This document shows, piece after piece, positions 348-36,281 of a stretch of 36,281 bases of DNA. The translations under genes and the position numbers were made by a program. The stretch's first letter is position 1. Every line of letters starts with the position of its first letter. Under the pieces are notes generated by a model. That model saw nothing but the letters and a program-made list of their open reading frames with translations. It did not search any database and had not been told where the DNA came from. Source of the DNA: an uncultured Clostridia bacterium (GTDB lineage Bacteria; Bacillota; Clostridia; Oscillospirales; Ruminococcaceae); assembly GCA_944388265.1 (NCBI GenBank), contig CALXIC010000067.1:1-36281 (forward strand), read 5' to 3'.

Positions 348-974
348 ATGCCGACTCAAACGTATGAACACCTTCCGCCGGAGAAGAAACAGCGGATTTT
401 GGCTGCCGTTTGCCGAGAACTGGCGCGGGTGCCGTTCGATCAGATTTCCATCAATCGGATCGTACAGGATGCGCAGATTGCACGGGGCAGCTTTTATCAG
501 TATTTTTCCGGCAAGGATGATTTGTTTTTGCTGGTAACGGAGGATTTTGCGCGCTATTTTGACGAACGCACGCGCTTTCGTTTGAAGCAGCATGACGGCG
601 ATCCGTTTTTGCTGATTCTTGGTATTTTTGACGATGTGTGCAGTTATGGAAAGACGTCGTCGGACCGGCAGCTGTTTCAAAATTTGTTTGAACAGATGCG
701 CCAGCGCACAGATCAGAAACAGAAAAATTTTGTGACATCCTTGAGCAAACAATATTGGCAGTATCAATACCCCAAGGAGCAAAAGGGCAATGGCCATGCA
801 AAGCAACACCTGGCTTTTGAGATCCTTTGCGATCTTTTGTTCAGCGCACTGGTTCGCGTGTGGATACAGGGTGCTGCGGTAGATGAGGCGCGTGTACAGC
901 TGGAACAAAAACTCTGGCTGGTGCGTCATGGGATTGAGCGGGAAGGAGAACAAACAGATGCTGGCAAAATTTAG
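348..974 (+). CDS. TetR/AcrR family transcriptional regulator
   Basis: The N-terminal helix-turn-helix region (ISINRIVQDAQIARGSFYQYFSGKDDLF) is typical of TetR_N. GGAGGG lies 5 nt before the ATG at 348. The gene ends in TAG and overlaps the RND start by 17 nt. Confidence 0.85.
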   Translation: MPTQTYEHLPPEKKQRILAAVCRELARVPFDQISINRIVQDAQIARGSFYQYFSGKDDLFLLVTEDFARYFDERTRFRLKQHDGDPFLLILGIFDDVCSYGKTSSDRQLFQNLFEQMRQRTDQKQKNFVTSLSKQYWQYQYPKEQKGNGHAKQHLAFEILCDLLFSALVRVWIQGAAVDEARVQLEQKLWLVRHGIEREGEQTDAGKI

Positions 975-3900
975 TGTAAAAAAACCTCTGACCATCTTCG
1001 TAGCGGCGATTGCCGTGTTGGTCATCGGCATCATGGCGTTGATGGAGATGACGCCCGATTTGCTGCCGAATATCAATTTACCCTATGTGGTAGTGATGAC
1101 GCCTTATCCGGGGGCAACGCCCGAAACGGTGGAAGAGGAGGTCACCAGACCGCTGGAGCAATCGATGGCGACGTTGGAGGACATCAACAACATCACCTCC
1201 ACCTCTTCCGAAAACTATTCGATGGTGGTGCTCGAATTTCAGGACGACGCGGATCTGGATGTGGTCGGCGTCGACATTTCGGAAAAACTCGATCAGGTCA
1301 CTCCAAACTGGGATGAGAGCATCGGTACGCCAGTGGTCATGAAGATCAATCCGTCGATGATGCCGGTGACGGTTGCGGTTGTCGATCAAGAAGGTACGTC
1401 GGTCACCGAGCTGACCGATCTTTTGAACAGCACGCTCATGAATGAACTGGAAGGCACCAACGGTGTGGCCAGCATCTCCAGCAGCGGGATGATCGAATCG
1501 GGCATTCATGTGACATTGTCGGAAGAAAAGCTTGATGCGGTGAATCAGAAGGTCATCGATGCCATCAACGATCAGTTTGCCGATTCGGAAGCGGAACTTG
1601 CGGATTCCCGCGAAGAACTGGAAGCGGGCGAAGCGGAGCTGAATGCGTCGGAATCGCAGATTGCCAGCGGACAGAGCGCTTTGGATGCGGCTCAAAGCCA
1701 GGCATCGGATCAGCTGGCCTCGGCGGGGACGGAACTGACCACCAACAAAATCACGCTGCAGCAGGCGCTGAGCGAACTAGATCAGCAGATTCAAGCGCTC
1801 GATCCCCAGATTTCCACGCTGCAGACGTCGATCGATACGATGCAGTCGGCAAAAGATCAGATGGATGCGCTGGAATCCGCCGTTGCATCGGCGGAAACGG
1901 AACGCGCATCGGCGTCCGCCCAGCTGACGGTGGCGCAGGCAACGCTTCAGACCTATGAGGATCAGATCGACGCCATCAATGAAGACAGCAGCCTGTCGGC
2001 GGAAGAAAAACAGCAGCAGATTGCGGCCATCACTTCCAGTCAGGATTACCTCGACGCACAGGCTTCGGTGACCGACTGGACGTCCAAACTGGCAACCGCG
2101 GAAGAATCGTTGACGGCGGCACAAGCAGCGCTCGAAGGATATGAAACGGCGCTCGGTATGACGGCGTCGGAATTGGACGATGCGATTGCAGAGGCACAGG
2201 ACGGATTAAATCAGCTGCTTTCCGCCAAAACCACACTGCAAACCAAGCGCGATGAGCTGGAAGACGGGCTGATTTCCGTCAACGAAGCGATGACCGAACT
2301 GGAATCGCAGAAAAGCCAGCTGACTTATACCATGTCCGCCAAGGCATCGCAGTTGATTTCCGCCCAAACCGCGTTGGAATCGGGCAAACAGCAGATGGAA
2401 AGCGCCAAAACGCAGCTGGACACGGCGGAAGAACAGCTCAAAGACGCAAAGGAACAGGCGCTGGATCAGGCGGACGTCAACAGCATCATCACGATGGATA
2501 TGGTTACCCAGATCCTCACCGCACAAAACTTCTCGATGCCGGCGGGTTATATCACCGATACCGACGAAACGGAATATATGGTGCGTGTCGGCGATAAAAT
2601 TGCCGATCTGGATGAACTGAAAAATCTGGTGCTCTTTGATTTGGACATGGATGGTTTGGAACCGATCCGTTTGTCCGATGTGGCGGACGTCTTTGTCACC
2701 GACAATTCCGACGAAGTGTATGCGCGCATCAATGGAAACGACGGCATCATTCTTTCGTTTAGCAAACAGTCGAACTACGCAACCGCGACGGTTTCGGACA
2801 ATTTGCAGGAACGTTTTGAAGAACTGAGCGAAAAATACGAAGGGCTGCACTTCACCACCATGATGGATCAGGGGGAATATATCAGCATCATCGTCGGTTC
2901 GGTGCTGCAAAACCTGCTGATGGGCGCGGTTTTGGCCGTGGTGATTTTGTTCCTCTTCTTAAAGAACTGGCGCCCGACGGTGATCGTGGCGTGCTCCATT
3001 CCGTTTAGCGTCATCTTTGCGATTGTGCTGATGTATTTTTCCGGCATTTCGCTGAATATGATTTCCCTTTCGGGATTGGCCATCGGGGTTGGCATGCTGG
3101 TGGATAACTCCGTCGTTGTCATCGAAAACACCTACCGTCTGCGCAGCAAGGGCTGCACGCTGATTCAGTCGGCCGTGTCCGGCGCCGGACAGGTCGCGGG
3201 GGCGATTACTTCCTCGACGCTCACGACGATTTGCGTCTTCTTGCCGATTGTCTTTATCGACGGCATTACAAGAGAGCTCTTTACCGATTTGGCGCTCACC
3301 CTCGGTTATTCGCTCATTGCCAGCTTGATTGTGGCGCTCACGTTGGTGCCGGCCATGTCGCGCGGGATGCTGTCGCGCGTGCCGACTGCGCGGGAACCGC
3401 TCATGGACCGGGTGAAGGCGCTCTATGAACATGTGGTGCGCTGGTGCTTAAAACGGCGGGCGGTGACGCTCCTCCTGGCGGTGGTCATCATGATCGTCAG
3501 CGTGCCGCTGGCGATGCTGCGCGGGCTGTCGTTTATGCCGACGATGGAAAGTACCGAAATTTCGGCCACACTGACCATGCCGGAGGGCTCCACGCTGGAA
3601 GAAACGGCGGCGGTGTCGGATGAAGCAATTTCCCGCATTCAGCAAATCGACGGCGTGGAAACGGTGGGCGCTATGGTGTCCGGCAACTCGGTGATGTCGT
3701 TCTCCGCGGCTTCCGCCTCGACCGATTCGGTGACGATGTATATCATGCTGGACGAGGATACCAAGCGCGGCGCTACGGAGATTACAAAAGAAATCAACGA
3801 AAGCTGTGAAGATCTGGACGGTACATTGGAAGCAACGGGCGCCAGCGACTTGTCTGCCTATCTGTCGATGGGCGGATCGGGCGTGACGGCGCAGCTCTAC

Positions 3901-4998
3901 GGCAGTGATCTGACCGAAATGCAGGAAACCGCGACCAAACTGGCCTCCAAACTCGAAGAAGTGGACGGTTTGACCAACATCTCCGATGGTCTGGAAGATA
4001 CCACGCCGGAAATCACCTTGACCGTCAATAAAAACAAAGCGATGGAACACGGCCTGACCGTTGCGCAGATTTACGCGGCGGTTGCCGGTCAGCTGAGCGA
4101 TTCGGTGGAATCCACTTCCTTAAACTACAACGGGATGGATACGACCATTACGATTCAGGATGCGCGCCTGTCTTCGCTCACACCGGATGATCTGTACGCC
4201 TATGAACTGGAAGTAACCAATCAGCAGGGAGAAACGTCGACGGTGCAGCTGCAGGAACTGGTGGATGTTTCGCACACCGATTCCTTGAACAGCATCAGCC
4301 GTTCGTCCCAGCGCCGGTATTTGACCATTTCGGCGGAAGTCGAAGAAGGGTACAATGCCACGACGGTCACCAGAGAAGCGGAATCGCTCCTGGAGGCGCA
4401 GGAACTGCCGGCAGGGATGTCGCTGGAATTTTCCGGTGAACTGGAAACGATTTTAGAGTCGATGAAACAGCTCTTGCTGATGCTGTTGCTGGCGATCATT
4501 TTGATTTATCTGATTATGGTGGCGCAGTTCCAGTCCTTGAAATCTCCGTTCATCGTCATGTTCACCATTCCGCTGGCATTCACGGGCGGATTTTTGGCCC
4601 TCTTCCTGACCGGTCAGCAGGTGAGCGTCATCTCGGTCATCGGGTTTGTCATGCTTTCCGGTATCATCGTCAACAACGGCATCGTGCTGGTGGACTACGT
4701 CAATCAGCTGCGGCTGGATGGTGTGGAAAAACGGGAAGCGTTGGTGGAAGCGGGCAAAACCCGTCTCCGTCCGATTTTCATGACGGCACTCACGACTGTA
4801 CTTGGGCTGGTGTTCATCGCCTGCGGCATTGGCACGGGCGCTGAAATGATGCAGCCGATCGGGATTGTCTGCATCGGCGGGCTTTTGTACGCGACGCTGA
4901 TGACGCTCTTTGTCATTCCGGTGATTTACGATCTTCTGAATAAGAAGGAAATGAAAAAGGTCGATGAAGCGGAATTAAAACTCGTCGAAGACCGTTGA
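958..4998 (+). CDS. RND (AcrB/AcrD/AcrF-type) efflux permease with a ~330-aa coiled-coil insertion in the first extracytoplasmic loop
   Basis: 1346 aa. The N-terminus (KKPLTIFVAAIAVLVIGIMAL...LPNINLPYVVVMTPYPGATPETVEEEVTRPLE) and the two TM bundles (around nt 2880-3400 and 4480-4930) match ACR_tran architecture. The RBS GGAAGGAG precedes the ATG at 958. Confidence 0.9.
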   Translation: MLAKFSVKKPLTIFVAAIAVLVIGIMALMEMTPDLLPNINLPYVVVMTPYPGATPETVEEEVTRPLEQSMATLEDINNITSTSSENYSMVVLEFQDDADLDVVGVDISEKLDQVTPNWDESIGTPVVMKINPSMMPVTVAVVDQEGTSVTELTDLLNSTLMNELEGTNGVASISSSGMIESGIHVTLSEEKLDAVNQKVIDAINDQFADSEAELADSREELEAGEAELNASESQIASGQSALDAAQSQASDQLASAGTELTTNKITLQQALSELDQQIQALDPQISTLQTSIDTMQSAKDQMDALESAVASAETERASASAQLTVAQATLQTYEDQIDAINEDSSLSAEEKQQQIAAITSSQDYLDAQASVTDWTSKLATAEESLTAAQAALEGYETALGMTASELDDAIAEAQDGLNQLLSAKTTLQTKRDELEDGLISVNEAMTELESQKSQLTYTMSAKASQLISAQTALESGKQQMESAKTQLDTAEEQLKDAKEQALDQADVNSIITMDMVTQILTAQNFSMPAGYITDTDETEYMVRVGDKIADLDELKNLVLFDLDMDGLEPIRLSDVADVFVTDNSDEVYARINGNDGIILSFSKQSNYATATVSDNLQERFEELSEKYEGLHFTTMMDQGEYISIIVGSVLQNLLMGAVLAVVILFLFLKNWRPTVIVACSIPFSVIFAIVLMYFSGISLNMISLSGLAIGVGMLVDNSVVVIENTYRLRSKGCTLIQSAVSGAGQVAGAITSSTLTTICVFLPIVFIDGITRELFTDLALTLGYSLIASLIVALTLVPAMSRGMLSRVPTAREPLMDRVKALYEHVVRWCLKRRAVTLLLAVVIMIVSVPLAMLRGLSFMPTMESTEISATLTMPEGSTLEETAAVSDEAISRIQQIDGVETVGAMVSGNSVMSFSAASASTDSVTMYIMLDEDTKRGATEITKEINESCEDLDGTLEATGASDLSAYLSMGGSGVTAQLYGSDLTEMQETATKLASKLEEVDGLTNISDGLEDTTPEITLTVNKNKAMEHGLTVAQIYAAVAGQLSDSVESTSLNYNGMDTTITIQDARLSSLTPDDLYAYELEVTNQQGETSTVQLQELVDVSHTDSLNSISRSSQRRYLTISAEVEEGYNATTVTREAESLLEAQELPAGMSLEFSGELETILESMKQLLLMLLLAIILIYLIMVAQFQSLKSPFIVMFTIPLAFTGGFLALFLTGQQVSVISVIGFVMLSGIIVNNGIVLVDYVNQLRLDGVEKREALVEAGKTRLRPIFMTALTTVLGLVFIACGIGTGAEMMQPIGIVCIGGLLYATLMTLFVIPVIYDLLNKKEMKKVDEAELKLVEDR

Positions 4999-6633: not shown

Positions 6634-9018
6634 ATGGAAGGAACTATGACGATTCCGGTTTTGGCGCTGCGCGGATTGGTGGTCATGGAACATATGACCA
6701 TCAGCTTCGAGGTTGGCAGAAAACGATCTCTGCTGGCGCTGCGGGAAGCGACAACGACCGATAAAAAGATTTTTCTGGTAGCTCAGCGCGATTTGGACTG
6801 TGAGGATCCCAAGCAGGAGGATCTGTTTGAATACGGCGTGCTGGCTACCGTCCGCCAGGTGATGCGCGGACAGGATGGCGTGACGCATGTGCAGGTGACG
6901 GGGGAAGCCCGTGCGCGCCTGGTACAGGTGGTGGAAGACAATCCGTTTTTAGTGGCGGAAGTGGTTCCCGAACCGATCAGCACCAATCCGGGGATGACTG
7001 CGGTCGAACTGGAAGCGCTGATGCGTGTGCTGCGCGAACTGTTTGAACAGTACAATTACCTGCTGCCCAAACCTCTCAAAACGATGACGGCGGTGCATAC
7101 GGAAGAATCGCCCGAACGGCTGTTTGAACTGATTGCCCATCACATGATGATGGAATATGAGGACAAGCAGGCACTTTTGGAATGCAACACCTTGGGCGAC
7201 CGCCTGGGGACGCTGGTGCATATCTTAAACCATGAACGTCAGCTGCTCGAATTGGAAAAGAGCATCTACGATCAGGTCAAAGAGGAAATGGACAAAAACC
7301 AGCGGGATTATTTCCTGCGCGAACAGATGCACGTCATTCAAAATGAGCTGGGCGAAGGCGATATGGATGACGACGATGTGGCGGGATTGCTCGATAAGAT
7401 TCAGGCAATCCAGACAATGCCGGACGATACCCGCGAAAAGCTCAAAAAAGAAGCGGAAAAGCTCTATAAAATGCCGCCCGGATCGCAGGAAGCAAACGTC
7501 ATCCGCAGTTATTTGGATGTTTGTTTGGAACTTCCGTGGGACAGCGCGACGGAAGATACCATTGATCTGAAGAAAGCGCGTAAAATTTTGGACCGCGATC
7601 ATTACGGATTGGATAAAGTCAAAGACCGCATTTTGGAAACGCTGGCGGTGCGCAAATTGCAGCCCGAGGTGAAGGGGCAGATCCTTTGTCTGGTCGGGCC
7701 TCCGGGCGTGGGCAAAACGTCCATTGGCCGCTGCATCGCTGAAACGATGGGCCGCAAGTATGTGCGGCTGTCGCTGGGCGGCGTGAAGGATGAATCGGAT
7801 ATCCGTGGTCACCGCAAAACCTATATCGGCTCGATGCCCGGGCGCATCATCAATGCTCTGCGTCAGGCGAAGACCAGAAACCCGCTGATTTTGCTCGATG
7901 AAATCGATAAGATGAGCAACGATTTTAGGGGTGATCCGTCTTCTGCGATGCTGGAAGTTTTGGACAGCGAGCAGAACAACGCCTTCCGCGATCACTATGT
8001 AGAAGTGCCGTTTGATTTGAGCGAAGTGTTCTTTATCACGACGGCAAACGACGCGTCTTCGATTCCGGGTCCGCTGCTTGACCGTATGGAAGTCATCGAA
8101 CTGTCGAGCTACACCCGCGAAGAAAAATTCCAGATTGCGAAAAAGCATCTGGTCGCGAAACAGCTGGAAAAACATGGGCTCACGGCGAAGGATTTGTCCT
8201 TTACGCAGGGCGCTTTGTACGGGCTGATCGATTATTATACGAGAGAAGCCGGGGTTCGTAACCTCGAACGCTCCATCGGTTCGCTTTGCCGCAAGGTCGC
8301 GAAGCAGAAGGTGGAAGAGGGCGACGCATTTGATAAGGTGCGTCTGGCAGAAAAGGATTTGGAACGCTTTTTGGGACCGAAAAAATATTCGGTGCCGAAA
8401 CTGCCGGAGAAGAATCCGGTCGGACTGGTCACCGGGCTTGCGTGGACGTCGGTCGGCGGCGAAACGCTGGAAATTGAAGCGGCGGTCATGCCGGGCACCG
8501 GTAAGGTCGAAATCACGGGCAATTTGGGCGATGTGATGACCGAATCCGCCAAACTGGCCGTCAGCTATGTGCGGACGATTGCCGACCGCTATGGCATCGA
8601 TCCTGATTTTTATAAGACCAAAGATTTGCACATCCATGCACCCGAAGGTGCGGTGCCGAAGGACGGACCGAGTGCCGGTGTGACCATCACGACGGCGTTG
8701 GTGTCGGCGCTCTCCGGCATTCCGGTGCGCCGCGATGTGGCGATGACGGGGGAAATTTCCCTGCGCGGACGGGTGATGCCCATCGGCGGCTTGAAAGAAA
8801 AATCCATCGCCGCTTACCGCAGCGGCATCCAGACGGTCATCATTCCCGCGGAGAACGAACCGGATCTGGCGCAGTTTGATGCGGTGGTTCGCGATCATCT
8901 CCATTTTTGTCCGGTCAAGACGCTGGACGAAGTGCTGGAATTGGCGCTTGCCAAGAAGGCGGAGATCAAACCGCCCCATCATACCCATTCGGCAGCGGAA
9001 AACCGCGCCAGTTGCTGA
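6634..9018 (+). CDS. lon: ATP-dependent Lon protease (endopeptidase La)
   Basis: 794 aa. It has a LON N-domain, the Walker A motif GPPGVGKTS, and the catalytic-serine region PKDGPSAGVT followed by MTGEISLRGRVMPIGG. AAGGAG RBS lies 5 nt upstream. Confidence 0.95.
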   Translation: MEGTMTIPVLALRGLVVMEHMTISFEVGRKRSLLALREATTTDKKIFLVAQRDLDCEDPKQEDLFEYGVLATVRQVMRGQDGVTHVQVTGEARARLVQVVEDNPFLVAEVVPEPISTNPGMTAVELEALMRVLRELFEQYNYLLPKPLKTMTAVHTEESPERLFELIAHHMMMEYEDKQALLECNTLGDRLGTLVHILNHERQLLELEKSIYDQVKEEMDKNQRDYFLREQMHVIQNELGEGDMDDDDVAGLLDKIQAIQTMPDDTREKLKKEAEKLYKMPPGSQEANVIRSYLDVCLELPWDSATEDTIDLKKARKILDRDHYGLDKVKDRILETLAVRKLQPEVKGQILCLVGPPGVGKTSIGRCIAETMGRKYVRLSLGGVKDESDIRGHRKTYIGSMPGRIINALRQAKTRNPLILLDEIDKMSNDFRGDPSSAMLEVLDSEQNNAFRDHYVEVPFDLSEVFFITTANDASSIPGPLLDRMEVIELSSYTREEKFQIAKKHLVAKQLEKHGLTAKDLSFTQGALYGLIDYYTREAGVRNLERSIGSLCRKVAKQKVEEGDAFDKVRLAEKDLERFLGPKKYSVPKLPEKNPVGLVTGLAWTSVGGETLEIEAAVMPGTGKVEITGNLGDVMTESAKLAVSYVRTIADRYGIDPDFYKTKDLHIHAPEGAVPKDGPSAGVTITTALVSALSGIPVRRDVAMTGEISLRGRVMPIGGLKEKSIAAYRSGIQTVIIPAENEPDLAQFDAVVRDHLHFCPVKTLDEVLELALAKKAEIKPPHHTHSAAENRASC

Positions 9019-9629: not shown

Positions 9630-10901
9630 ATGGAGAAAAAACCGTTTGTCACCTTAGAACAGGTGAAGGAATTGGTCAAAACCTATCCGACGCCGTTCCA
9701 TCTTTACGATGAAGCGGGGATTCGCGAAAACGCACGCAAAGTGCAGCAGGCATTTGCCTGGAACAAGGGGTTTCGCGAATATTTTGCGGTGAAGGCGACG
9801 CCCAATCCGTTTTTAATCAATATTTTGAAGGAATACGGCTGCGGCTGCGACTGCTCGTCGATGACGGAACTGATGATGGCGCATGCGCTCGGCTTTTCGG
9901 GAGAGGGCATCATGTTTTCTTCCAACGCGACGCCGGCGTCGGAATTTCAGTATGCGCGCAAGATTGGTGCAACCATCAACCTCGACGATTTTACGCACAT
10001 TGAATTTTTGGAAAAATGCGCCGGTTTGCCGGAAACCATCTCCTGCCGTTTCAATCCGGGCGGATTGTTCCAGCTGAGCAATGGGATCATGGACAATCCC
10101 GGCGATGCGAAATACGGCTTTACCACCGAACAACTCTTTGAAGGTTTCCGTATCCTGAAAGCGAAGGGCGTCAAGCACTTCGGGATTCATGCCTTTTTGG
10201 CGTCCAATACGGTGACCAACTAGTATTATCCGGAGCTGGCAAAGGTGCTGTTCCAGCTTGCCGTGGACCTGAAAAAGGAAACGGGTGCGGATATTCGCTT
10301 CATCAATCTGTCGGGCGGCGTTGGCATTCCGTATCGTCCGGATCAGGAACCCAACGACATTTTGGCGATTGGGGAAGGCGTACACCGCGTCTACGACGAA
10401 ATTCTCACGCCCGCCGGCATGGGGGATGTCGCCATCTACACCGAAATGGGACGCTTTATGATGGGCCCGTATGGCTGTCTGGTGACGCAGGCGATTCACG
10501 AAAAGCATATTTATAAAGAATATATCGGCTGCGATGCCTGTGCTGTGAACCTGATGCGTCCGGCGATGTATGGCGCTTATCATCACATTAACGTGTTGGG
10601 CAAAGAAGATGCTGTGTGCGATCATAAATATGACATCACCGGTTCGCTCTGTGAAAACAACGATAAATTTGCGGTCGACCGCATGCTGCCGAAGATTGAT
10701 ATCGGCGATTATCTGGTGATTCACGATACCGGTGCGCACGGTTTTTCGATGGGCTATAACTACAACGGAAAACTCCGTTCCGCGGAAATTTTGCTGAAAG
10801 AGGATGGTTCCGCACAGCTGATTCGCCGTGCTGAAACGCCGGAAGATTATTTCCGTACCTTTGATTTTTGTGATATTTTAAAAGATATTGATAAACAGTA
10901 A
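9630..10901 (+). CDS. Fold-type III PLP-dependent decarboxylase (DAP decarboxylase family), interrupted by one in-frame TAG at 10221..10223
   Basis: ORFs 9630..10223 and 10245..10901 are in the same frame. The N part carries FAVKATPNP (PLP-lysine region). The C part carries GGVGIPY, EMGRFMMG and CENND. The combined length is normal for the family. Under standard code 11 this would be annotated as a pseudogene or as two fragments. Confidence 0.8.
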
Positions 10902-10945: not shown

Positions 10946-11055
10946 AGCTCATTTTGGCACAAATTTGACGCTTTACCACGAAAGTCGAGAAAGTATGCTC
11001 GGGGATAAAACGCCGAAAATATCGCCGATTAGAAGCGCTCGTAAGAAGTGAAAGA

Positions 11056-11090
11056 AAAAAGCCTTTCCGGAAAATCCGGAAAGGCTTTTT
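11056..11090 (-). terminator. Rho-independent terminator after assT (usable in both directions)
   Basis: The hairpin AAAAAGCCTTTCCGG-AAAA-TCCGGAAAGGCTTTTT. Confidence 0.75.
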
Positions 11091-11101
11091 CGTATCAGCA
11101 A

Positions 11102-13018
11102 TTAGCAAGTGATCTGCATGCCAGTTTCGTATTTCTTGTCGTCGATGACCACACGAATATCGTAAGTACCGGACAGACCAGCTTTGTTGATCGCGGTCTT
11201 GGTGTTACGTTTCAGTGCTTCTTCGCTCAAGCTGCTTTCGTCGAGGAAGGTACCAACACACATTGCTTTGAAGTCGGTCTTCGAGGTCGAAATGAAGTAC
11301 TGATGTGCTTCTTCGCCCTGTTCGAGCATGAGCAGAACGAGCTGGCCTTTCTTGAAGGTCGAATGGAAGGTGAAGCGGTCGATTTCTTCCACCAGTTTTG
11401 CTTCGCAGGATTCCGGAAGCATTTCGCCGGACGGATCCATCGGGATGAGGGTTTCGTCTTCTTTCGTGACACCCATAGCGCCCAGAACCTGGCCTTTGCC
11501 CAGTTCAAGGTTGATGCAGTCGGTGTAGAGTTTGAGTTTTTCTGCACGATAGAAGTTGCCGTGAACCTTCAGTTCGAGTTTCTTCACGTCGTTGTCGAGT
11601 TCAACGGTGATCGCGTACAGCGAGCCGCCTTCGAGATCGATCGCCGGGCCCAGTTTTTCGGACGGTTCGCCGTCTTTGGTGTAAGCGATACCGCCGGAGT
11701 GCACCATGTAATGGCCTTCGTTGTAGTATTCTACGTTACAGATGTACGGGGAGAAGTAATCCGCACCGCGGTCTTTACCATATTCCCAAACCTGTTCGAT
11801 GGTCATGTCTTTGGTGTTGATGCGGTAACGGACGCCGCGCGAATAGTTGTCTTTTGCCGGGAGATATTTTTCCGGATCTCTGGTGCCCCAGTGATGGTTG
11901 TCGAAGCACATGACGTCGCCGTTCGGGGTGATGACGTTTGCGTGCTGTTCATACTGCCAGCCGAAGTTGTTGCCGATCGGTTTGAAGCAGTATTTGTCGA
12001 CGAATTCCTGCGGCCAGCCGCATTTTTCTTTTTCCGGATCGGTGAAGACTGCCGGATCGGTGATGACCCAGTTGAGTTTGCCGGAATCAAAGTCGATGTT
12101 GACCATCGAGTTGACGTGACGGCCCGAGAAGGTCAGGGAGTTGGTGTTCTTGTCATACCAAACAGCGTTGTTGTGGAACCAGTCTTCTTCGGTCCAGCTG
12201 CCGGATCTGCCGTAACCAACCGGCATAAAGTCTTTGTAATCCCAGGTTTTGAGGATTTCGCCGGTCTGACGGTCCACCAGGATGCACATATCTTCTACGG
12301 TATCGCTGGTCAAATCTTCGGTCAGGATGAGGAGGTTGCCGTCTTCCATTTCGAAGGAGTCATGATGGTAACCGCCCGGAACGCGGAATTCTTTGTAGAT
12401 CTTACCGCACATGCTCATTTCGTAAAGACCGGACATGTAGTACGGCAGTTTGAGCAGACGGTCGGTACCGATCACGATGTTGCCGTTTTTCAAACGCTTC
12501 AGGTCGAATACGCAAGCAATGTTCAAATGCCAACGAGCGTCGCCGTTGTAGTCGTAGCCAACTGCCAGGTCAGCGCCAGCCGGGGAAACGATGATGATGT
12601 TGTCCTGCAGGTATTCAGCGGTGGTATCCATCGAGATGATCGGATCTTTGCCGTCGAATACGTCCGGAACGTCGATCGTGATCACGTTCGCATCGCCGCG
12701 GTATGCACGGATTTCCACTTTGTTGGAATAGTTGGAATAAAGGCCAACGATCGGGAGCACATGCACTTTTGCCGGAGCAAAGGTGTGGTAAATGTTGCCC
12801 TGCGGCTGTTTTTTGCCGAGCACGGTCACGGTGATTGCCACTTCTTCTTCGGTTTTGAAGCAGACAACGGCCGACAGCGGGTTGATGCCATACACGTTGT
12901 ATTTCACCAACGGGTTTTCCAGGGTGTAGTTGCCAGCTTCGAATTCAGCCAGCATTTCCTGTTCTGCTTTGTACTGACGGTCAATGATGTGTTCGGAAAA
13001 TTCGTATTTTACTGCCAT
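11102..13018 (-). CDS. assT: Aryl-sulfate sulfotransferase (ASST family, PAPS-independent), no signal peptide, extra C-terminal domain
   Basis: 638 aa. ASST-like blocks are present: ENPLVKYNVYGINPLSAVV (N-domain), GGYHHDSFEMEDGN, EDWFHNNAVWYD and YEQHANVITPNGDVMCFDNHH. The N-terminus is hydrophilic. GGAGG RBS lies 8 nt upstream. Confidence 0.8.
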   Translation of the reverse strand: MAVKYEFSEHIIDRQYKAEQEMLAEFEAGNYTLENPLVKYNVYGINPLSAVVCFKTEEEVAITVTVLGKKQPQGNIYHTFAPAKVHVLPIVGLYSNYSNKVEIRAYRGDANVITIDVPDVFDGKDPIISMDTTAEYLQDNIIIVSPAGADLAVGYDYNGDARWHLNIACVFDLKRLKNGNIVIGTDRLLKLPYYMSGLYEMSMCGKIYKEFRVPGGYHHDSFEMEDGNLLILTEDLTSDTVEDMCILVDRQTGEILKTWDYKDFMPVGYGRSGSWTEEDWFHNNAVWYDKNTNSLTFSGRHVNSMVNIDFDSGKLNWVITDPAVFTDPEKEKCGWPQEFVDKYCFKPIGNNFGWQYEQHANVITPNGDVMCFDNHHWGTRDPEKYLPAKDNYSRGVRYRINTKDMTIEQVWEYGKDRGADYFSPYICNVEYYNEGHYMVHSGGIAYTKDGEPSEKLGPAIDLEGGSLYAITVELDNDVKKLELKVHGNFYRAEKLKLYTDCINLELGKGQVLGAMGVTKEDETLIPMDPSGEMLPESCEAKLVEEIDRFTFHSTFKKGQLVLLMLEQGEEAHQYFISTSKTDFKAMCVGTFLDESSLSEEALKRNTKTAINKAGLSGTYDIRVVIDDKKYETGMQITC

Positions 13019-13036
13019 ATCATTTTTCCTCCAAAC

Positions 13037-13348
13037 TTATTTATATTCCTCAATCATTTTCACGATTGCGGTTTTCTGCTGCAAACCGGACATCCGTTTG
13101 AGTTCTTTGCCATCTTTGAAGAGGATGATGGTCGGATAGCCGGACACGTTGTATTCGGCAGTCAGTTCTTTGTTTTCGTCAAAGTTTACTTTGAGGATTT
13201 TCAGATCATCGCCAAAGGTTTTTTCCACATCTTTCAACACAAAGCCCAGCATTTTGCACGGACCGCAGGTCGAAGAGAAAAAGTCTGCCAGCACCAGACC
13301 GGTGCCCATTTCTTCTTTGAATTCTGCTGCGTTGACTTCTTTTAACAT
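13037..13348 (-). CDS. trxA: Thioredoxin (atypical TCGPC active site)
   Basis: 103 aa with FFSSTCGPCKMLG and the cis-Pro region GYPTIILFKDG. GGAGGA lies 8 nt upstream of the ATG at 13348; the TTG at 13354 is a less likely start. Confidence 0.85.
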   Translation of the reverse strand: MLKEVNAAEFKEEMGTGLVLADFFSSTCGPCKMLGFVLKDVEKTFGDDLKILKVNFDENKELTAEYNVSGYPTIILFKDGKELKRMSGLQQKTAIVKMIEEYK

Positions 13349-13363
13349 AATCAAGTTCCTCCT

Positions 13364-14287
13364 TTATCCATTCAGCCGTTCCACGTAGTGGGAAGCTTCC
13401 TGTGCTGCAATAGCGCCGTCCGCACAAGCGGTAATGACCTGACGCAGGTTTTTCACGATGCAGTCGCCGGCGGCATAGATGCCCGGGATAGCGGTTTCCA
13501 TGCGTTCATTGACTTTGATGTATCCGTAATCGTTGAGCAGACCGGTATCTTTCAGATATTCCGTCGTCGGCATCAAACCGATGTATTCGAATACGCCGTC
13601 GCAGGGAACGGTGGTTTCTTCGCCGGTTTTGGTGGATTTGAAACGAACGCCGGTCAGTTTGTCGTCGCCCGTAAATTCCAGTACATCCTGATAGGGATAG
13701 ATTTTGACGTGATCCATCGCGCGCAGTTTGTCGCAGGCGATCGGGTCAGCCGTCAGGTCAAACATGGTGACGATGGTCAGCGATTTGACGATTCCAGCCA
13801 GGAAGATGGATTCTTCTACTGCGGAGTTGCCGCCGCCGATGACCACAACGTCTTTGTCACGGTACTGTGCACCGTCGCAGATCGCGCACCAGCTGATGCC
13901 GTTGCCGCGGAATTTTTCTTCGGTCGGCAGATTCAGGCAGCGCTGTTTGGTGCCGGTTGCAAGGATCACCGTTTTGGTGGTGTACTGCATGTTGTCTTCT
14001 TCGCAGATGACGGTTTTTTCTTCGCCGTGATCTTCGATTTTGACCACCGTGCGGTAATCGAATTCCACATTCAATTCCTGCGTGTGTTCGTACATTTTAT
14101 AAGCGAGTTCCGCACCGTTGATGGTACCGACCCCGGTATAGTTTTGAATTTCGTTGGTATTGATGATCTGTCCGCCCGGTGCCAGCTTGTCCAGCAAAAG
14201 CACTTTCATGTTTGCACGGGCTGCATAAATCGAAGCGGTCATACCGGAAGGACCAGCGCCAACAATAATCACATCATATTGAGCCAT
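13364..14287 (-). CDS. trxB: Thioredoxin-disulfide reductase family flavoprotein (lacks the HRRxxxR NADPH motif)
   Basis: 307 aa. It has the FAD motif VIIVGAGPSG, redox-active CAICDG, GGGNSAVEE, and C-terminal GIYAAGD. AAGGAG RBS precedes the ATG at 14287. Confidence 0.85.
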   Translation of the reverse strand: MAQYDVIIVGAGPSGMTASIYAARANMKVLLLDKLAPGGQIINTNEIQNYTGVGTINGAELAYKMYEHTQELNVEFDYRTVVKIEDHGEEKTVICEEDNMQYTTKTVILATGTKQRCLNLPTEEKFRGNGISWCAICDGAQYRDKDVVVIGGGNSAVEESIFLAGIVKSLTIVTMFDLTADPIACDKLRAMDHVKIYPYQDVLEFTGDDKLTGVRFKSTKTGEETTVPCDGVFEYIGLMPTTEYLKDTGLLNDYGYIKVNERMETAIPGIYAAGDCIVKNLRQVITACADGAIAAQEASHYVERLNG

Positions 14288-14309
14288 TTTCAATACTCCT
14301 TTCTTATTG

Positions 14310-14351
14310 AACAACCTGTTCCTGATTATTATAAATCAAGAACAGGTTGTT
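14310..14351. promoter_or_regulatory. 42-bp near-perfect palindrome (18-bp arms, 1 mismatch) centred on a minus-strand TATAAT upstream of trxB
   Basis: AACAACCTGTTCCTGATT-ATTATA-AATCAAGAACAGGTTGTT. On the minus strand TATAAT is at 14333..14328, and a TCGACA -35-like box lies 18 nt upstream. Confidence 0.5.
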
Positions 14352-14400
14352 TGTCGATAGCATGCGCTAAAATTTATTCAATTTTAGTAAACTTGACAAC

Positions 14401-15873
14401 TTAAATAAACAAGTTGACGAAAGGAATACCAACGACAATGATGAGAGCAAGTTCAACCAGCGAATAGAAGCCGGCGAATTTGTAAACGTCCGTTGCTTTC
14501 AGCCATTCTTTGTTGGAGAACATCATTGCTGCAAACGGCGACGCTGCCGGAGTAACGATCGCGGAGAGCAGAACGAAGAAGATCAGCAGGGTGACAAACG
14601 GAGCTGCCGCCACACCAGTGGTGTTGCAGTAAGTAAGGATAACCGGCTGCAAAATCATACCGATTACCAAGCTGTTGCAGATGTTGGTGAGCAGGAAGGC
14701 GATGACCAGCAATACAATCGAGAAGACCATCGGGGTCATGCCGTTGAAGATCGGGGAAAGCACAGCGCTCAGGAAAGCGGAAACACCGGTGTTTTCATTG
14801 GTCAAAACCGAACCGATCAAAATAGCGGTTGCACAGAGGAAGAAAGTCGACCAAGCAAAATCTTTTTCCATGACTTTGGTGATCTGCAGCACCGGACGGC
14901 CGTCGCTGAGGATCACAGCACCCAAAATGGAAACGTAAATCAGTGCAAAGCCCAGGGAATAACCGTTGAGTTTTGCCATGATCGGAATGCTCTGCAGAAG
15001 GCTCGGAACGAGCATCAGGAGCACGTAAATGATAAAGGTAACAAACAAGGTTTTCTGGCGGGTATTCATCGGCGGGAGCGGGTTTTTCTGGAAATGTTCA
15101 ATCGAAACATTTTTCAAGAGGGATACATCCGGACGCAGGATGAATTTGGTCACCAGAATGATAACAGTCAGGAAGATCAGGCCAAGGATGAAGCAGGTAA
15201 TGAAGTAAGTACCATCATTGATGAATGCTACATCACCCGAAATGGTGCGGTAGTTGCTCAACAGTGCCAGGCCGTTGGACATATACGGCGGAACCGGGAA
15301 GCCCAGCATTGCAGCGATAACGATGAGGATGAGCATCAATTTCGGATATTTGTCGGTCTTTTTGTAGCCCAGTTCATCGAAGATGCCGTACATAACCGGC
15401 CAGAACAGGAAGATCGGAATGAAACATCCCATAAAGATGGACATTAGGTAAGCGCCTACGAGGATGACGCTGGTGAATACCCACGGACGACCGTTGACCA
15501 TTTTCCGGGTGAGGAAGAAACGGCCGATGTAAACGGTGATTTTTTCATAGGTCAAAGCACCGGTGCCAACCATCATGAAGAACATCTGCACAACGGTGGG
15601 GTTGCCGAACCAAGAGCCCAGTACACCGCCCATCGTGCTGTAAGCGGTCAGACCGATAGCGCCCACGGAAAACAAGCTGGCCCACAGCGGGTCAACCGTG
15701 GTCCACAGGTACAGGGTTCCGATGAATACCCCCAAAACCTGTTCCCCAACCGGGGTTACCGTTTCTGCCGGCCATGGAATGGGCAGCAATGGAAAGATCA
15801 CCATAATGGCGATGCCAATGATTGCATGAACAACTTGCATGTTCAGCTTGGACTTTGTTTTTGTCTCAGTCAT
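14401..15873 (-). CDS. Multi-pass permease, ion-transporter superfamily (DASS/SLC13-like anion transporter)
   Basis: 490 aa with about 12-14 hydrophobic segments. The N-terminal pattern (VLGVFIGTLYLWTTVDPLWASLFSV) resembles DASS/ArsB-NhaD type permeases. AAGGAG RBS is present. The family call is tentative. Confidence 0.55.
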   Translation of the reverse strand: MTETKTKSKLNMQVVHAIIGIAIMVIFPLLPIPWPAETVTPVGEQVLGVFIGTLYLWTTVDPLWASLFSVGAIGLTAYSTMGGVLGSWFGNPTVVQMFFMMVGTGALTYEKITVYIGRFFLTRKMVNGRPWVFTSVILVGAYLMSIFMGCFIPIFLFWPVMYGIFDELGYKKTDKYPKLMLILIVIAAMLGFPVPPYMSNGLALLSNYRTISGDVAFINDGTYFITCFILGLIFLTVIILVTKFILRPDVSLLKNVSIEHFQKNPLPPMNTRQKTLFVTFIIYVLLMLVPSLLQSIPIMAKLNGYSLGFALIYVSILGAVILSDGRPVLQITKVMEKDFAWSTFFLCATAILIGSVLTNENTGVSAFLSAVLSPIFNGMTPMVFSIVLLVIAFLLTNICNSLVIGMILQPVILTYCNTTGVAAAPFVTLLIFFVLLSAIVTPAASPFAAMMFSNKEWLKATDVYKFAGFYSLVELALIIVVGIPFVNLFI

Positions 15874-22886: not shown

Positions 22887-23927
22887 TCATTCGAACAAAC
22901 ATCCGTTGAATTTGTAAATCTTTCGAGCCAGCCGGTAAAGACCGATGCCCACCATTCGTCCCGATTCTCCGGGGAGAACGGTTGCCGCACTGATGGATCG
23001 GTATTTCATGTGGTGATAGAGCTTCGGATTCTTTTCTTTTAACAGTCTCCAAAGCGCCAGCTTTTTCTGACGGTCCTCCGGCTTTTGGGAAAGCAGGCAG
23101 AGGATGGAGCAGATGGCCACCATCATGGACAGATAATTGAACATGTAGCGGGAGAGTTTCGGCTGGGTCTTTGCCAGTTCTTCGAGATCGCATACATCGA
23201 GCATGATGCGGGTGACCCGAAGCTGCTGATCCACGCGCTTGACCATGACGGCTTCATTGACCGACTGATCCTGCCGGCCGATGAAGTAGCGGTACAGGTC
23301 GATGTCCATGTAATAGATCGATTCCACATAGGGAAGCGGCTGGTAGACAAAGATGTTGTCCACGTAGAAGGTGTGTTTCGGCAGCTTCAGCCCGCTTTCG
23401 CGCAGCAGTTCGGTGCGGTAGACACACGAATGCATCAGCAGGTACTGCGACGGACGGAAGCGTCTGGTATTTTGCCAGGAGAAGATGGTGTTCACCGGGA
23501 AAACATTGCGGTAATTGATCGGTTTGCTGGTACCGTCTTCCACATGTTCATACACGTAGTTGGCAACTACCAGGTCGACCGGTTTTGCCATGTGCGCAAA
23601 GACGAGCAGCTGTTTCATCAATTTCTGAAGCGCATCCAGATCGAGCCAGTCGTCCGAGTCCACGACTTTGTAGTAAAGGCCGGTGGCGTGCGCCAATCCC
23701 TGATTGACCCCTTCGCCGTGGACGCCGTTTTCCTGATGGATGACCCGCACAATATCCGGGTAGATCATGGCGTAGTTATCGGCAATCGCACCGGTTTCAT
23801 CCTTCGAACCGTCGTCCACCAGGATAATTTCCGCCTCTTTGCCTGCGGTGAGCAGGGTATCGATGCAGTGTGCCATGTACGCTGCGGAATTGTAGCACGG
23901 CACAGCAAATGTAATGAGCTTATTCAT
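22887..23927 (-). CDS. Glycosyltransferase family 2 (possibly a galactofuranosyltransferase, by context)
   Basis: 346 aa with the GT-A N-terminus FAVPCYNSAAYMAHCIDTLL...IILVDDGSKDET and a DSDD motif. It lies immediately downstream of glf. Confidence 0.85.
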   Translation of the reverse strand: MNKLITFAVPCYNSAAYMAHCIDTLLTAGKEAEIILVDDGSKDETGAIADNYAMIYPDIVRVIHQENGVHGEGVNQGLAHATGLYYKVVDSDDWLDLDALQKLMKQLLVFAHMAKPVDLVVANYVYEHVEDGTSKPINYRNVFPVNTIFSWQNTRRFRPSQYLLMHSCVYRTELLRESGLKLPKHTFYVDNIFVYQPLPYVESIYYMDIDLYRYFIGRQDQSVNEAVMVKRVDQQLRVTRIMLDVCDLEELAKTQPKLSRYMFNYLSMMVAICSILCLLSQKPEDRQKKLALWRLLKEKNPKLYHHMKYRSISAATVLPGESGRMVGIGLYRLARKIYKFNGCLFE

Positions 23928-30505: not shown

Positions 30506-30694
30506 CGAGAAACAGCGGCTTTTTTCAGGATGTTTAGAAATCTGAATAGTTTCTGATGAATTCTTAAAAACCCGGATTTTAGGGAAAAATTGTGATAAGA
30601 TAAAACTGGATTCAAGAGATGCAGCGAAAGTGCGGATGCTTGAAAAGCTTCTCGTCCGCTGCTTTCGTTTGATGGATAGAAAGAAGGCGTTATC

Positions 30695-32182
30695 ATGAAA
30701 TTGTCCGCTTTGCTCGAAGGGATTTCCTACTTTTGGATGCAGCAGTCCGGGGATCCGGATTGCACGCAGATTTGTTTTGACAGCCGCAAGGTGCAGCCCG
30801 GGGCGTTGTTCGTCTGCATCAAGGGCGAATTTTCGGATGGACACCGGTATGTGGAGGAAGCCATTCGTGCCGGCGCCTGCGCGATTGTGTGCGACGGCGT
30901 GTTTTCCCTTGCACAGGTTCCGTCCAGAGTGGCGGTTGTGCGCGTAGCCAAGGCGAGACAGGCGCTGGCAGTGCTGGCGGCAAACTTTTATCACCATGCC
31001 GACCGCCGGTTAAAACTCATCGGGGTCACCGGCACCAACGGCAAAAGCACCAGTGTGACGTTTTTGTAGTCGATTTTGCAGCAGGCCGGAAAGAAAACCG
31101 GCTTGATCGGCACCATTGAAAACGATACCGGAAAACGCCGCTTCCCCTCCGGCATGACCACGCCGGAAGCGACGGATCTTCAGCAGCTGTTTGCGGAAAT
31201 GGTGGACGCCGGCTGTGAATACTGCGTGATGGAGGTTTCTTCCCATGCTTTGGCGCAGGACCGCGTCTATGGGCTTACATTTGAAGTAGGGATTTTCACG
31301 AATCTCACCCACGATCATTTGAAATTTCACCGCACCTTTGAGCAGTATTATCAGGCCAAGTACCAGCTGATGCGTCAAAGCAAACATTGCGTGGTGCAGG
31401 TGGACGACCTTTACGGCCGCCGGATGGTCAACGAACTGCGGGAAGAGGGCGCTTCGCTCACAACGGCGGCACTCGATCACCAAGCGCATTTTCAGGGCAG
31501 CGGTGTGGTGATGGAACAAACCGGAAGCAGCTTTTTCTGCAACGGGGAAGCGTATTCCATCCGCATGCCCGGACGGTTTAACGTTTCCAATGCGCTGGGA
31601 TGTATTGCGGCGGCTCGGCTGCTAAACATTCCGGCTCCCGTCATTCGTGCAGGGATTGCCGACGTGCAGGTCGCCGGACGGATGGAACGGGTCTTTTCCG
31701 GACAGTTTCCGTTTGAAATCTTCATCGATTTTGCGCATACGCCCGACGGATTGCAAAAAGCGCTGGAAACGGTTCGCCTGTTTACCGAAGGCCGCGTGAT
31801 TGCGGTTTACGGAAGCGGGGGCGATCCCGATCCAGAAAAACGGGTCGAAATGGGACGAATCGGCACAGCATTTGCAGACATTGCGGTCTTTACCTCGGAC
31901 AACCCCAAAGACGAAAATCCGATGCAGATCCTGTATCAGATGGCATCGGGAGCGGAAACGAAGAACTATCAGCTGATTCCCGATCGTGCGGAAGCGATTG
32001 CCTGGGCGATTGCAAATGCCCGTCCCGGAGATACCGTATTGCTGGCGGGAAAGGGTCACGAAACCTATCAGTGGACCAAAGAAGGCCGTGAACCGTTCAG
32101 TGAACGCGAACAGATTGCCTCCTGCCTGCGTCCCAACCGCGTGTTTCCGTGGTTCTTCCACAAAAAGAAATTATACAATTAG
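30695..32182 (+). CDS. murE: UDP-N-acetylmuramoyl-L-alanyl-D-glutamate--2,6-diaminopimelate ligase (MurE), interrupted by one in-frame TAG at 31067..31069
   Basis: ORFs 30695..31069 and 31076..32182 are in the same frame. The sequence reads GVTGTNGKSTSVTFL-TAG-SILQQAGKKTGLIGT, followed by MEVSSHAL, FTNLTHDHL, DFAHTPD, SDNPK and GKGHETYQ. At 496 codons the total length is normal for MurE. The gene also terminates with TAG. Confidence 0.9.
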
Positions 32183-32199
32183 TATAATACAGATCGTAT

Positions 32200-32230
32200 A
32201 AAAAAGCGCCGTGAAAAACGGCGCTTTTTT
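32200..32230. terminator. Bidirectional rho-independent terminator
   Basis: The hairpin AAAAAAGCGCCG-TGAAAAA-CGGCGCTTTTTT. Confidence 0.85.

Positions 32231-34681: not shown

Positions 34682-36281
<1,600 letters not shown>

Follow-up and report, generated by a model that had tools for sequence, protein, structure and literature searches.

The murE gene of the 36281-bp stretch of DNA analyzed here (the window; 50.8% G+C) carries an in-frame TAG that originated by a private C->T change from a glutamine codon and that is not conserved among relatives, while TAG is otherwise in normal use as a stop codon. We consider it probable that this TAG is an ordinary private nonsense change that receives no special decoding, be it a real recent mutation or a consensus error. 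We infer both that the codon goes undecoded and how this explanation divides: a real, very recent nonsense mutation is quite possible, if short of an even chance, and a consensus error is the less likely of the two. Three readings, namely an undecoded real mutation, a consensus error and a real mutation that is suppressed, fit about equally.

An in-frame TAG in a full-length murE frame

The TAG at 31067-31069 (forward strand) is the only break in the frame between the murE ATG at 30695 and the terminal TAG at 32180-32182. Upstream of it, codons 1-124 (30695-31066, forward strand) were recognized by their in-frame identity to the conspecific 495-residue MurE; they encode the Mur ligase N domain and the P-loop GVTGTNGKST (MurE residues 110-119), which the TAG follows after five residues. 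Downstream of it, the frame reopens at 31070, and codons 126-495 together with the natural stop, a TAG that both reference strains share, extend to 32182 on the same strand. The second open reading frame listed here, annotated as a 368-residue murE fragment (P0132), starts merely at the first TTG, 31076. With the stop masked, the 495-residue product matches NF001126 with 518.8 bits (cut-off 373), residues 1-478 aligning to positions 1-482 of the 486-position profile, and TIGR01085 with 485 bits (cut-off 257). The Mur ligase N, M and C domains (PF01225, PF08245 and PF02875, found in the conspecific MurE proteins) are present in order. The full-length match above curated cut-offs, the P-loop and the domain order thus all place the product in the MurE family; what it lacks is an uninterrupted frame, and this in the window only, the gene being intact in 13 conspecifics. 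The earlier note had described the TAG as the sole interruption of a full-length collinear MurE, and the frame reading and the end-to-end match to NF001126 bear this out. The ribosome binding site and terminator that it reported are also present, and both are readable directly in the sequence. A Shine-Dalgarno-like GAAGG (30683-30687, forward strand) stands 7 nt upstream of the ATG. An intrinsic terminator follows the gene at 32200-32230 (forward strand), consisting of an A-run, a GCGCCG stem, a 7-nt loop, CGGCGC and a T-run, with the stem formed by 32206-32211 and 32219-32224; a consensus terminator scan did not pick it up. The gene is not part of a dcw cluster and sits between a HIGH_NTase1 gene and ycxB-hrcA-grpE-dnaK.

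A MurE made in two pieces would require termination at codon 125, re-initiation at TTG 31076 and assembly of the fragments into an active ligase. The stop and the TTG are 7 nt apart, and an annotated 368-residue product begins at this TTG. However, no Shine-Dalgarno sequence precedes it, the break disrupts the ATP-binding domain right behind the P-loop, and a split gene is found in no relative, so that we regard such an arrangement as barely conceivable.

At murE codon 125 all seven conspecific DNA loci (95.5-97.9% identical to the window) carry CAG, and the 33-nt context around the codon is otherwise identical in every one of them. Gln125 is present in 13 of 13 full-length 495-residue proteins of the 90% MurE cluster, which was drawn from ENA, Logan, JGI and NCBI. 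Among the compared sequences the C->T transition at 31067 occurs in the window only, and the 368-residue MurE fragment, like a 197-residue LysA fragment (P0257), is recorded only from the source contig, an NCBI contig of which the window is the whole 36281 bp. These data confirm the proposed C->T origin of the TAG, which is private to the contig, and they favour an ordinary nonsense change; a lesion that is absent from conspecifics is also what would be seen in a recent pseudogene. The site had been taken for a freely variable Lys, Gln or Glu position. This did not hold, since the conspecific proteins all have Gln there and Lys occupies the position in at least 90% of 27 more distant MurE sequences. 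One conspecific long-read contig, L096 (ENA ERZ21549425 s4627.ctg005237l), was set aside as noisy and rich in broken genes: its murE, its HIGH_NTase1 gene and its hrcA are all fragmented. These breaks are typical uncorrected indel noise and account for a 256-residue MurE fragment in the protein cluster. L097, a Logan contig with an identical Lon, belongs to a different strain (97.6% identity) and ends before lysA.

The MurE of this species has GGDPDP for GGDRDK (31817-31834), DNPK for DNPR (31898-31909) and a 13-residue C-terminal extension. Both of the replaced arginines are at least 90% conserved in the 27 homologues and are replaced only in the species and in a 64% relative, which shares the DNPK, so that the DNPR motif expected of MurE is missing from both. 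As the DNPR arginine binds the distal carboxylate of meso-DAP (PMC3829189), the motif suggests that the species' MurE may add a different amino acid or may be a specialised copy.

A second amber codon in lysA and the quality of the contig

Pfam matching and conspecific comparison revealed a second private in-frame TAG at 10221-10223 in lysA, which encodes diaminopimelate decarboxylase in 423 codons (9630-10901, forward strand). The Pfam match is split over the open reading frames 9630-10223 and 10245-10901, which share one frame with this single TAG between them. The conspecific comparison identifies the TAG as a replacement of GAG (Glu198) by a private G->T transversion: the codon is GAG in six of eight conspecific loci and GAT in the other two. 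Among the 80 homologues listed (GTDB genomes), 64 have Glu, 15 Asp and one Leu at this position, which is only moderately conserved in distant solved homologues, a point in favour of suppression. Private in-frame TAGs are thus found in two of the 29 genes of the contig, murE and lysA. According to the earlier note, a lack of other in-frame TAGs in conserved genes would have pointed to an error or an ordinary pseudogene. The lysA codon removes that objection, and because lysA carries a second in-frame TAG, suppression stays alive as an explanation. Each of the two interrupted genes either draws on the meso-DAP/lysine pool or supplies it.

The two genes differ in constraint. In lysA there are three non-synonymous and five synonymous private changes versus none and 29 in the sister lineages (p=0.007), and in murE two and 23 versus 14 and 65 (p=0.35). 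This shows that constraint is relaxed in lysA on the window branch and not in murE. The relaxation in lysA favours an ordinary nonsense change and speaks against suppression, since the gene behaves as though truly inactive. In contrast, unrelaxed constraint in murE is at odds with an ordinary nonsense change, and a murE free of decay after the stop is what suppression would give. A private T321N in LysA falls at a position where all 80 close homologues listed have Thr and distant solved structures have Phe or Ile. LysA shares 82-86% identity with Lachnospiraceae proteins. Outside the species, Lon (6634-9018) reaches at most 71%, to metagenomic proteins, and 57-61% to its best named relatives, which are Oscillospiraceae, so that the organism belongs to an uncultured Clostridia lineage near that family. 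The contrast between the two proteins may come from horizontal transfer of lysA or just from very strong conservation.

Two conspecific references were stitched across the whole window and aligned to it. All five window-specific indels are intergenic, though about 91% of the window is coding, and the 312 private substitutions against 16 conspecific loci comprise 237 synonymous, 37 non-synonymous and 38 intergenic changes. The ratio of non-synonymous to synonymous changes is not above that of the two sister lineages (odds ratio 0.79-0.82, p=0.26-0.43), and the substitution spectrum is ordinary, with no C->T excess. Random error is hard to square with a contig that is otherwise this clean in its indels, its 237 to 37 changes and its dN/dS. 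Several technical origins were considered and rejected. Poor assembly is countered by the exclusively intergenic private indels and the normal dN/dS. Ancient-DNA or deamination damage and a mutator are countered by a private spectrum that resembles those of the sisters (C>A among replacements 7/28 versus 18/143, p=0.14), and motif-linked (methylation) base-calling error by the lack of any sequence context shared between the two TAG sites and the other private changes. The data thus give no support to widespread random error, long-read indel error, deamination damage or motif-linked miscalls.

The private replacements are nevertheless unusual in kind. They are more radical than those of the sisters (mean BLOSUM62 -0.06 versus 0.37 and 1.03; Mann-Whitney p=0.0065), LysA T321N being among them, and this argues for an ordinary nonsense change. 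Nonsense changes make up two of the 37 private replacements versus none of 201 in the sister lineages (p=0.024). Such an excess favours suppression over an ordinary nonsense change. In the absence of selection, the 245 synonymous changes of the window branch would lead one to expect some 21 nonsense changes, about 11.5 of them amber, and two are seen; nonsense retention on this branch is comparable to, or above, missense retention. No frameshift, TAA or TGA lesion was found in the 29 genes of the window. General decay usually gives some, so that their absence, too, favours suppression over an ordinary nonsense change. That both nonsense changes are amber has a chance probability of about 0.3, because TAG is the outcome of 54% of the nonsense opportunities in these genes when the opportunities are weighted by the observed mutation spectrum, and it is thus compatible with an ordinary nonsense change. 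The two ambers moreover replace different residues (Gln in murE, Glu or Asp in lysA) by different mutation classes (C->T and G->T), which likewise favours an ordinary nonsense change.

Some further differences were noted along the window. In dnaK, private replacements fall at conserved positions, R48C in GERxVG and A236V in KEAAEKAK (window positions 34823 and 35388), and both belong to the unusually radical private set; one reference (refA) has no non-synonymous change in dnaK and the other (refB) two, over 23 synonymous ones. A GT2 glycosyltransferase gene on the reverse strand shows a private stop-loss (22887-22904), in which the TGA of both references is GGA and the open reading frame gains five codons up to the next TGA. 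In the gene of a CitMHS-family transporter (14401-15873, reverse strand), reference L089 shows 69 synonymous and 21 non-synonymous differences, a level well beyond its average, and this tract looks like an import by recombination. An AcrB/RND-family pump (883-4998) is about 1346-1371 residues long, some 300 over the 1021-position Pfam model, which it matches in two stretches with a large insertion in the N-terminal half; the TAG of the upstream TetR gene overlaps the start region of the pump. Reverse-strand open reading frames at 11102-14314 that share a frame and are separated by TAA were rejected as candidates for another interrupted gene, as they are three separate genes for an arylsulfotransferase, a thioredoxin and a thioredoxin reductase. 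The forward-strand open reading frames of 765 and 338 residues that lie antisense to them (11048-14404) have no Pfam match and are codon-bias artefacts, as are similar antisense frames opposite ackA and murE.

TAG as a stop codon and the hairpin downstream of the murE TAG

Natural stops in the 28 complete genes of the window are TAA in 19, TGA in seven and TAG in two. TetR (972-974) and murE are the two genes with a TAG stop, which both references share, and in relatives a TAG also terminates Sod_Cu. No compensating change follows the TAG stop of TetR, murE or Sod_Cu, and read-through of the natural TAG would add 113 residues to TetR and 22 to murE. UAG therefore still serves as a terminator in these three genes. 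This agrees with an ordinary nonsense change, and it counts against suppression as well, the natural TAG stops of TetR and murE being unchanged.

A change of the genetic code at the level of the species does not survive the finding that the TetR and murE stops are maintained in the window and its relatives. Reassignment of UAG to sense in the whole lineage, or general pyrrolysine-type decoding of UAG in the organism, could draw on the scarcity of TAG as a stop and on the presence of two in-frame TAGs in conserved genes. Against it, both sites encode amino acids in every conspecific strain, the TAG stops of TetR, murE and Sod_Cu are conserved, and the residues aligned to the two in-frame TAGs, two sites only, differ between Gln in murE and Glu or Asp in lysA. 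The window also contains no pyl genes. The bacterial stop reassignments known so far all involve UGA (PMC8629427), and no bacterial chromosome is known in which UAG is a general sense codon. Judged by the conspecific sequences, reassignment at the lineage level appears largely refuted already, and we hold it to be highly unlikely.

Pyrrolysine decoding, with its pylTSBCD genes and methylamine methyltransferases, resembles the situation in murE in that an in-frame UAG is followed by a hairpin. It differs in that the murE UAG is not conserved among orthologues, which have CAG in the seven conspecific loci and Lys or Gln in the 27 homologues, and in that murE is unrelated to the methyltransferase families. 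The downstream structure is not specific to UAG-bearing genes either. The 8-bp hairpin at 31082-31105 (forward strand) lies in the murE coding sequence, over the codons for AGKKTG, and folding and allele comparison showed that it is not specific to the TAG allele: its folding z is -2.9 in the window versus -1.6 and -0.85 in CAG alleles. In the window, one G.U pair of the hairpin has become G-C through a synonymous private T->C at 31102. The hairpin pointed out in the earlier note is thus real; its role as a read-through element is not borne out, as every CAG allele has a slightly weaker copy.

Programmed read-through of the murE UAG driven by this hairpin, in the manner of a PYLIS or SECIS element, could be argued from its position 13 nt after the TAG, its z of -2.9 and its strengthening by the private synonymous change. 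However, the same hairpin is encoded by every CAG allele and lies within a conserved coding stretch, the murE TAG is not conserved, and nothing comparable follows the lysA TAG (z = +0.5). We therefore consider programmed read-through most improbable, and a hairpin that is not allele-specific agrees well with an ordinary nonsense change. Since the TAG is private to the contig, since TAG is still an ordinary stop and since the CAG alleles contain the hairpin, a conserved recoding signal and a species-level code change are excluded. The 36-kb window holds no tRNA gene and no Rfam match. This, too, fits an ordinary nonsense change, and the missing tRNA counts against suppression.

Nonsense allele or suppressed amber

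If the murE codon is an ordinary nonsense change, a strain-private substitution would have turned CAG (Gln125) into TAG in the species' ordinary, selectively constrained murE. Under standard decoding RF1 would terminate at codon 125, the product would be a 124-residue N-terminal fragment that ends just past the P-loop, and the remaining 370 codons would not be productively translated. The TAG allele would be one of a small set of unpurged private changes, together with the lysA amber and several radical replacements. Should these be recent deleterious mutations in one population, lysA would be becoming a pseudogene, and MurE activity would have to come from residual read-through or from another ligase. 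Alternatively, the same set could consist of consensus errors in a MAG that is fragmented; there are hints of sibling NCBI contigs 3.8 and 7.9 kb long. A nascent unitary pseudogene likewise presents as a stop created by one base change where all conspecifics have an intact gene, here with a second lesion, in lysA, that shows signs of relaxed constraint. The case at hand differs from it in that the interrupted gene is normally essential and unrelaxed, and in that the lesions are amber only, free of frameshifts, and lie in a well-purified contig. A further difficulty for an ordinary nonsense change is that cells normally cannot do without murE, and a lethal allele would not be expected to become dominant in a population.

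The main rival explanation is amber suppression in the strain, in which a CUA-anticodon tRNA reads UAG often enough to give full-length MurE and LysA. A suppressor would allow private amber codons to persist in constrained genes. It would most plausibly insert Gln, leaving MurE exactly wild type and LysA with E198Q, and it could be a mutated chromosomal tRNA or a tRNA of a TAG-recoded prophage. In favour of suppression, two private in-frame TAGs stand among 29 genes of a contig that is otherwise clean, with intergenic indels, a normal dN/dS and no other disruptive lesion. Gln is the original MurE residue as well as the mildest replacement for Glu in LysA. The Lon of the window is near those of Oscillospiraceae, and TAG-recoded prophages are reported in Oscillospiraceae hosts. 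On the other side, U follows both TAGs, and in E. coli UAG followed by U is a good context for termination and a poor one for suppression. Two events, moreover, give little statistical power. We regard suppression as possible, if on the unlikely side.

Suppression is biologically plausible, the literature describing suppressor tRNAs of the TAG-to-Gln type and, in an Oscillospiraceae genome, a prophage recoded at TAG. Strains with a supE-type tRNA-Gln (CUA) and the TAG-to-Gln suppressors of phages and prophages resemble the present case in that ambers are tolerated in constrained genes, and the CAG->TAG change in murE is one that a Gln suppressor would restore exactly. They differ in that the window is devoid of a suppressor tRNA and in that the in-frame TAGs described lie in phage genes and not in host housekeeping genes. 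More specifically, the strain might be a natural amber suppressor, either a lysogen of a TAG-to-Gln prophage or the carrier of a mutated tRNA-Gln, that is gathering UAGs in housekeeping genes including murE. We put this forward as a doubtful hypothesis.

If the murE TAG is no more than a consensus error or a private nonsense allele, its main lesson is caution, as a stop in a single MAG is no evidence for recoding unless relatives share it. If both ambers are real and suppressed, host genes would be drifting into dependence on a suppressor tRNA. Suppression would then represent a rare natural intermediate toward reassignment of UAG, the known bacterial reassignments all concerning UGA (PMC8629427). 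In a natural suppressor strain, the path of a bacterial chromosome toward codon reassignment would be open to observation at an early step.
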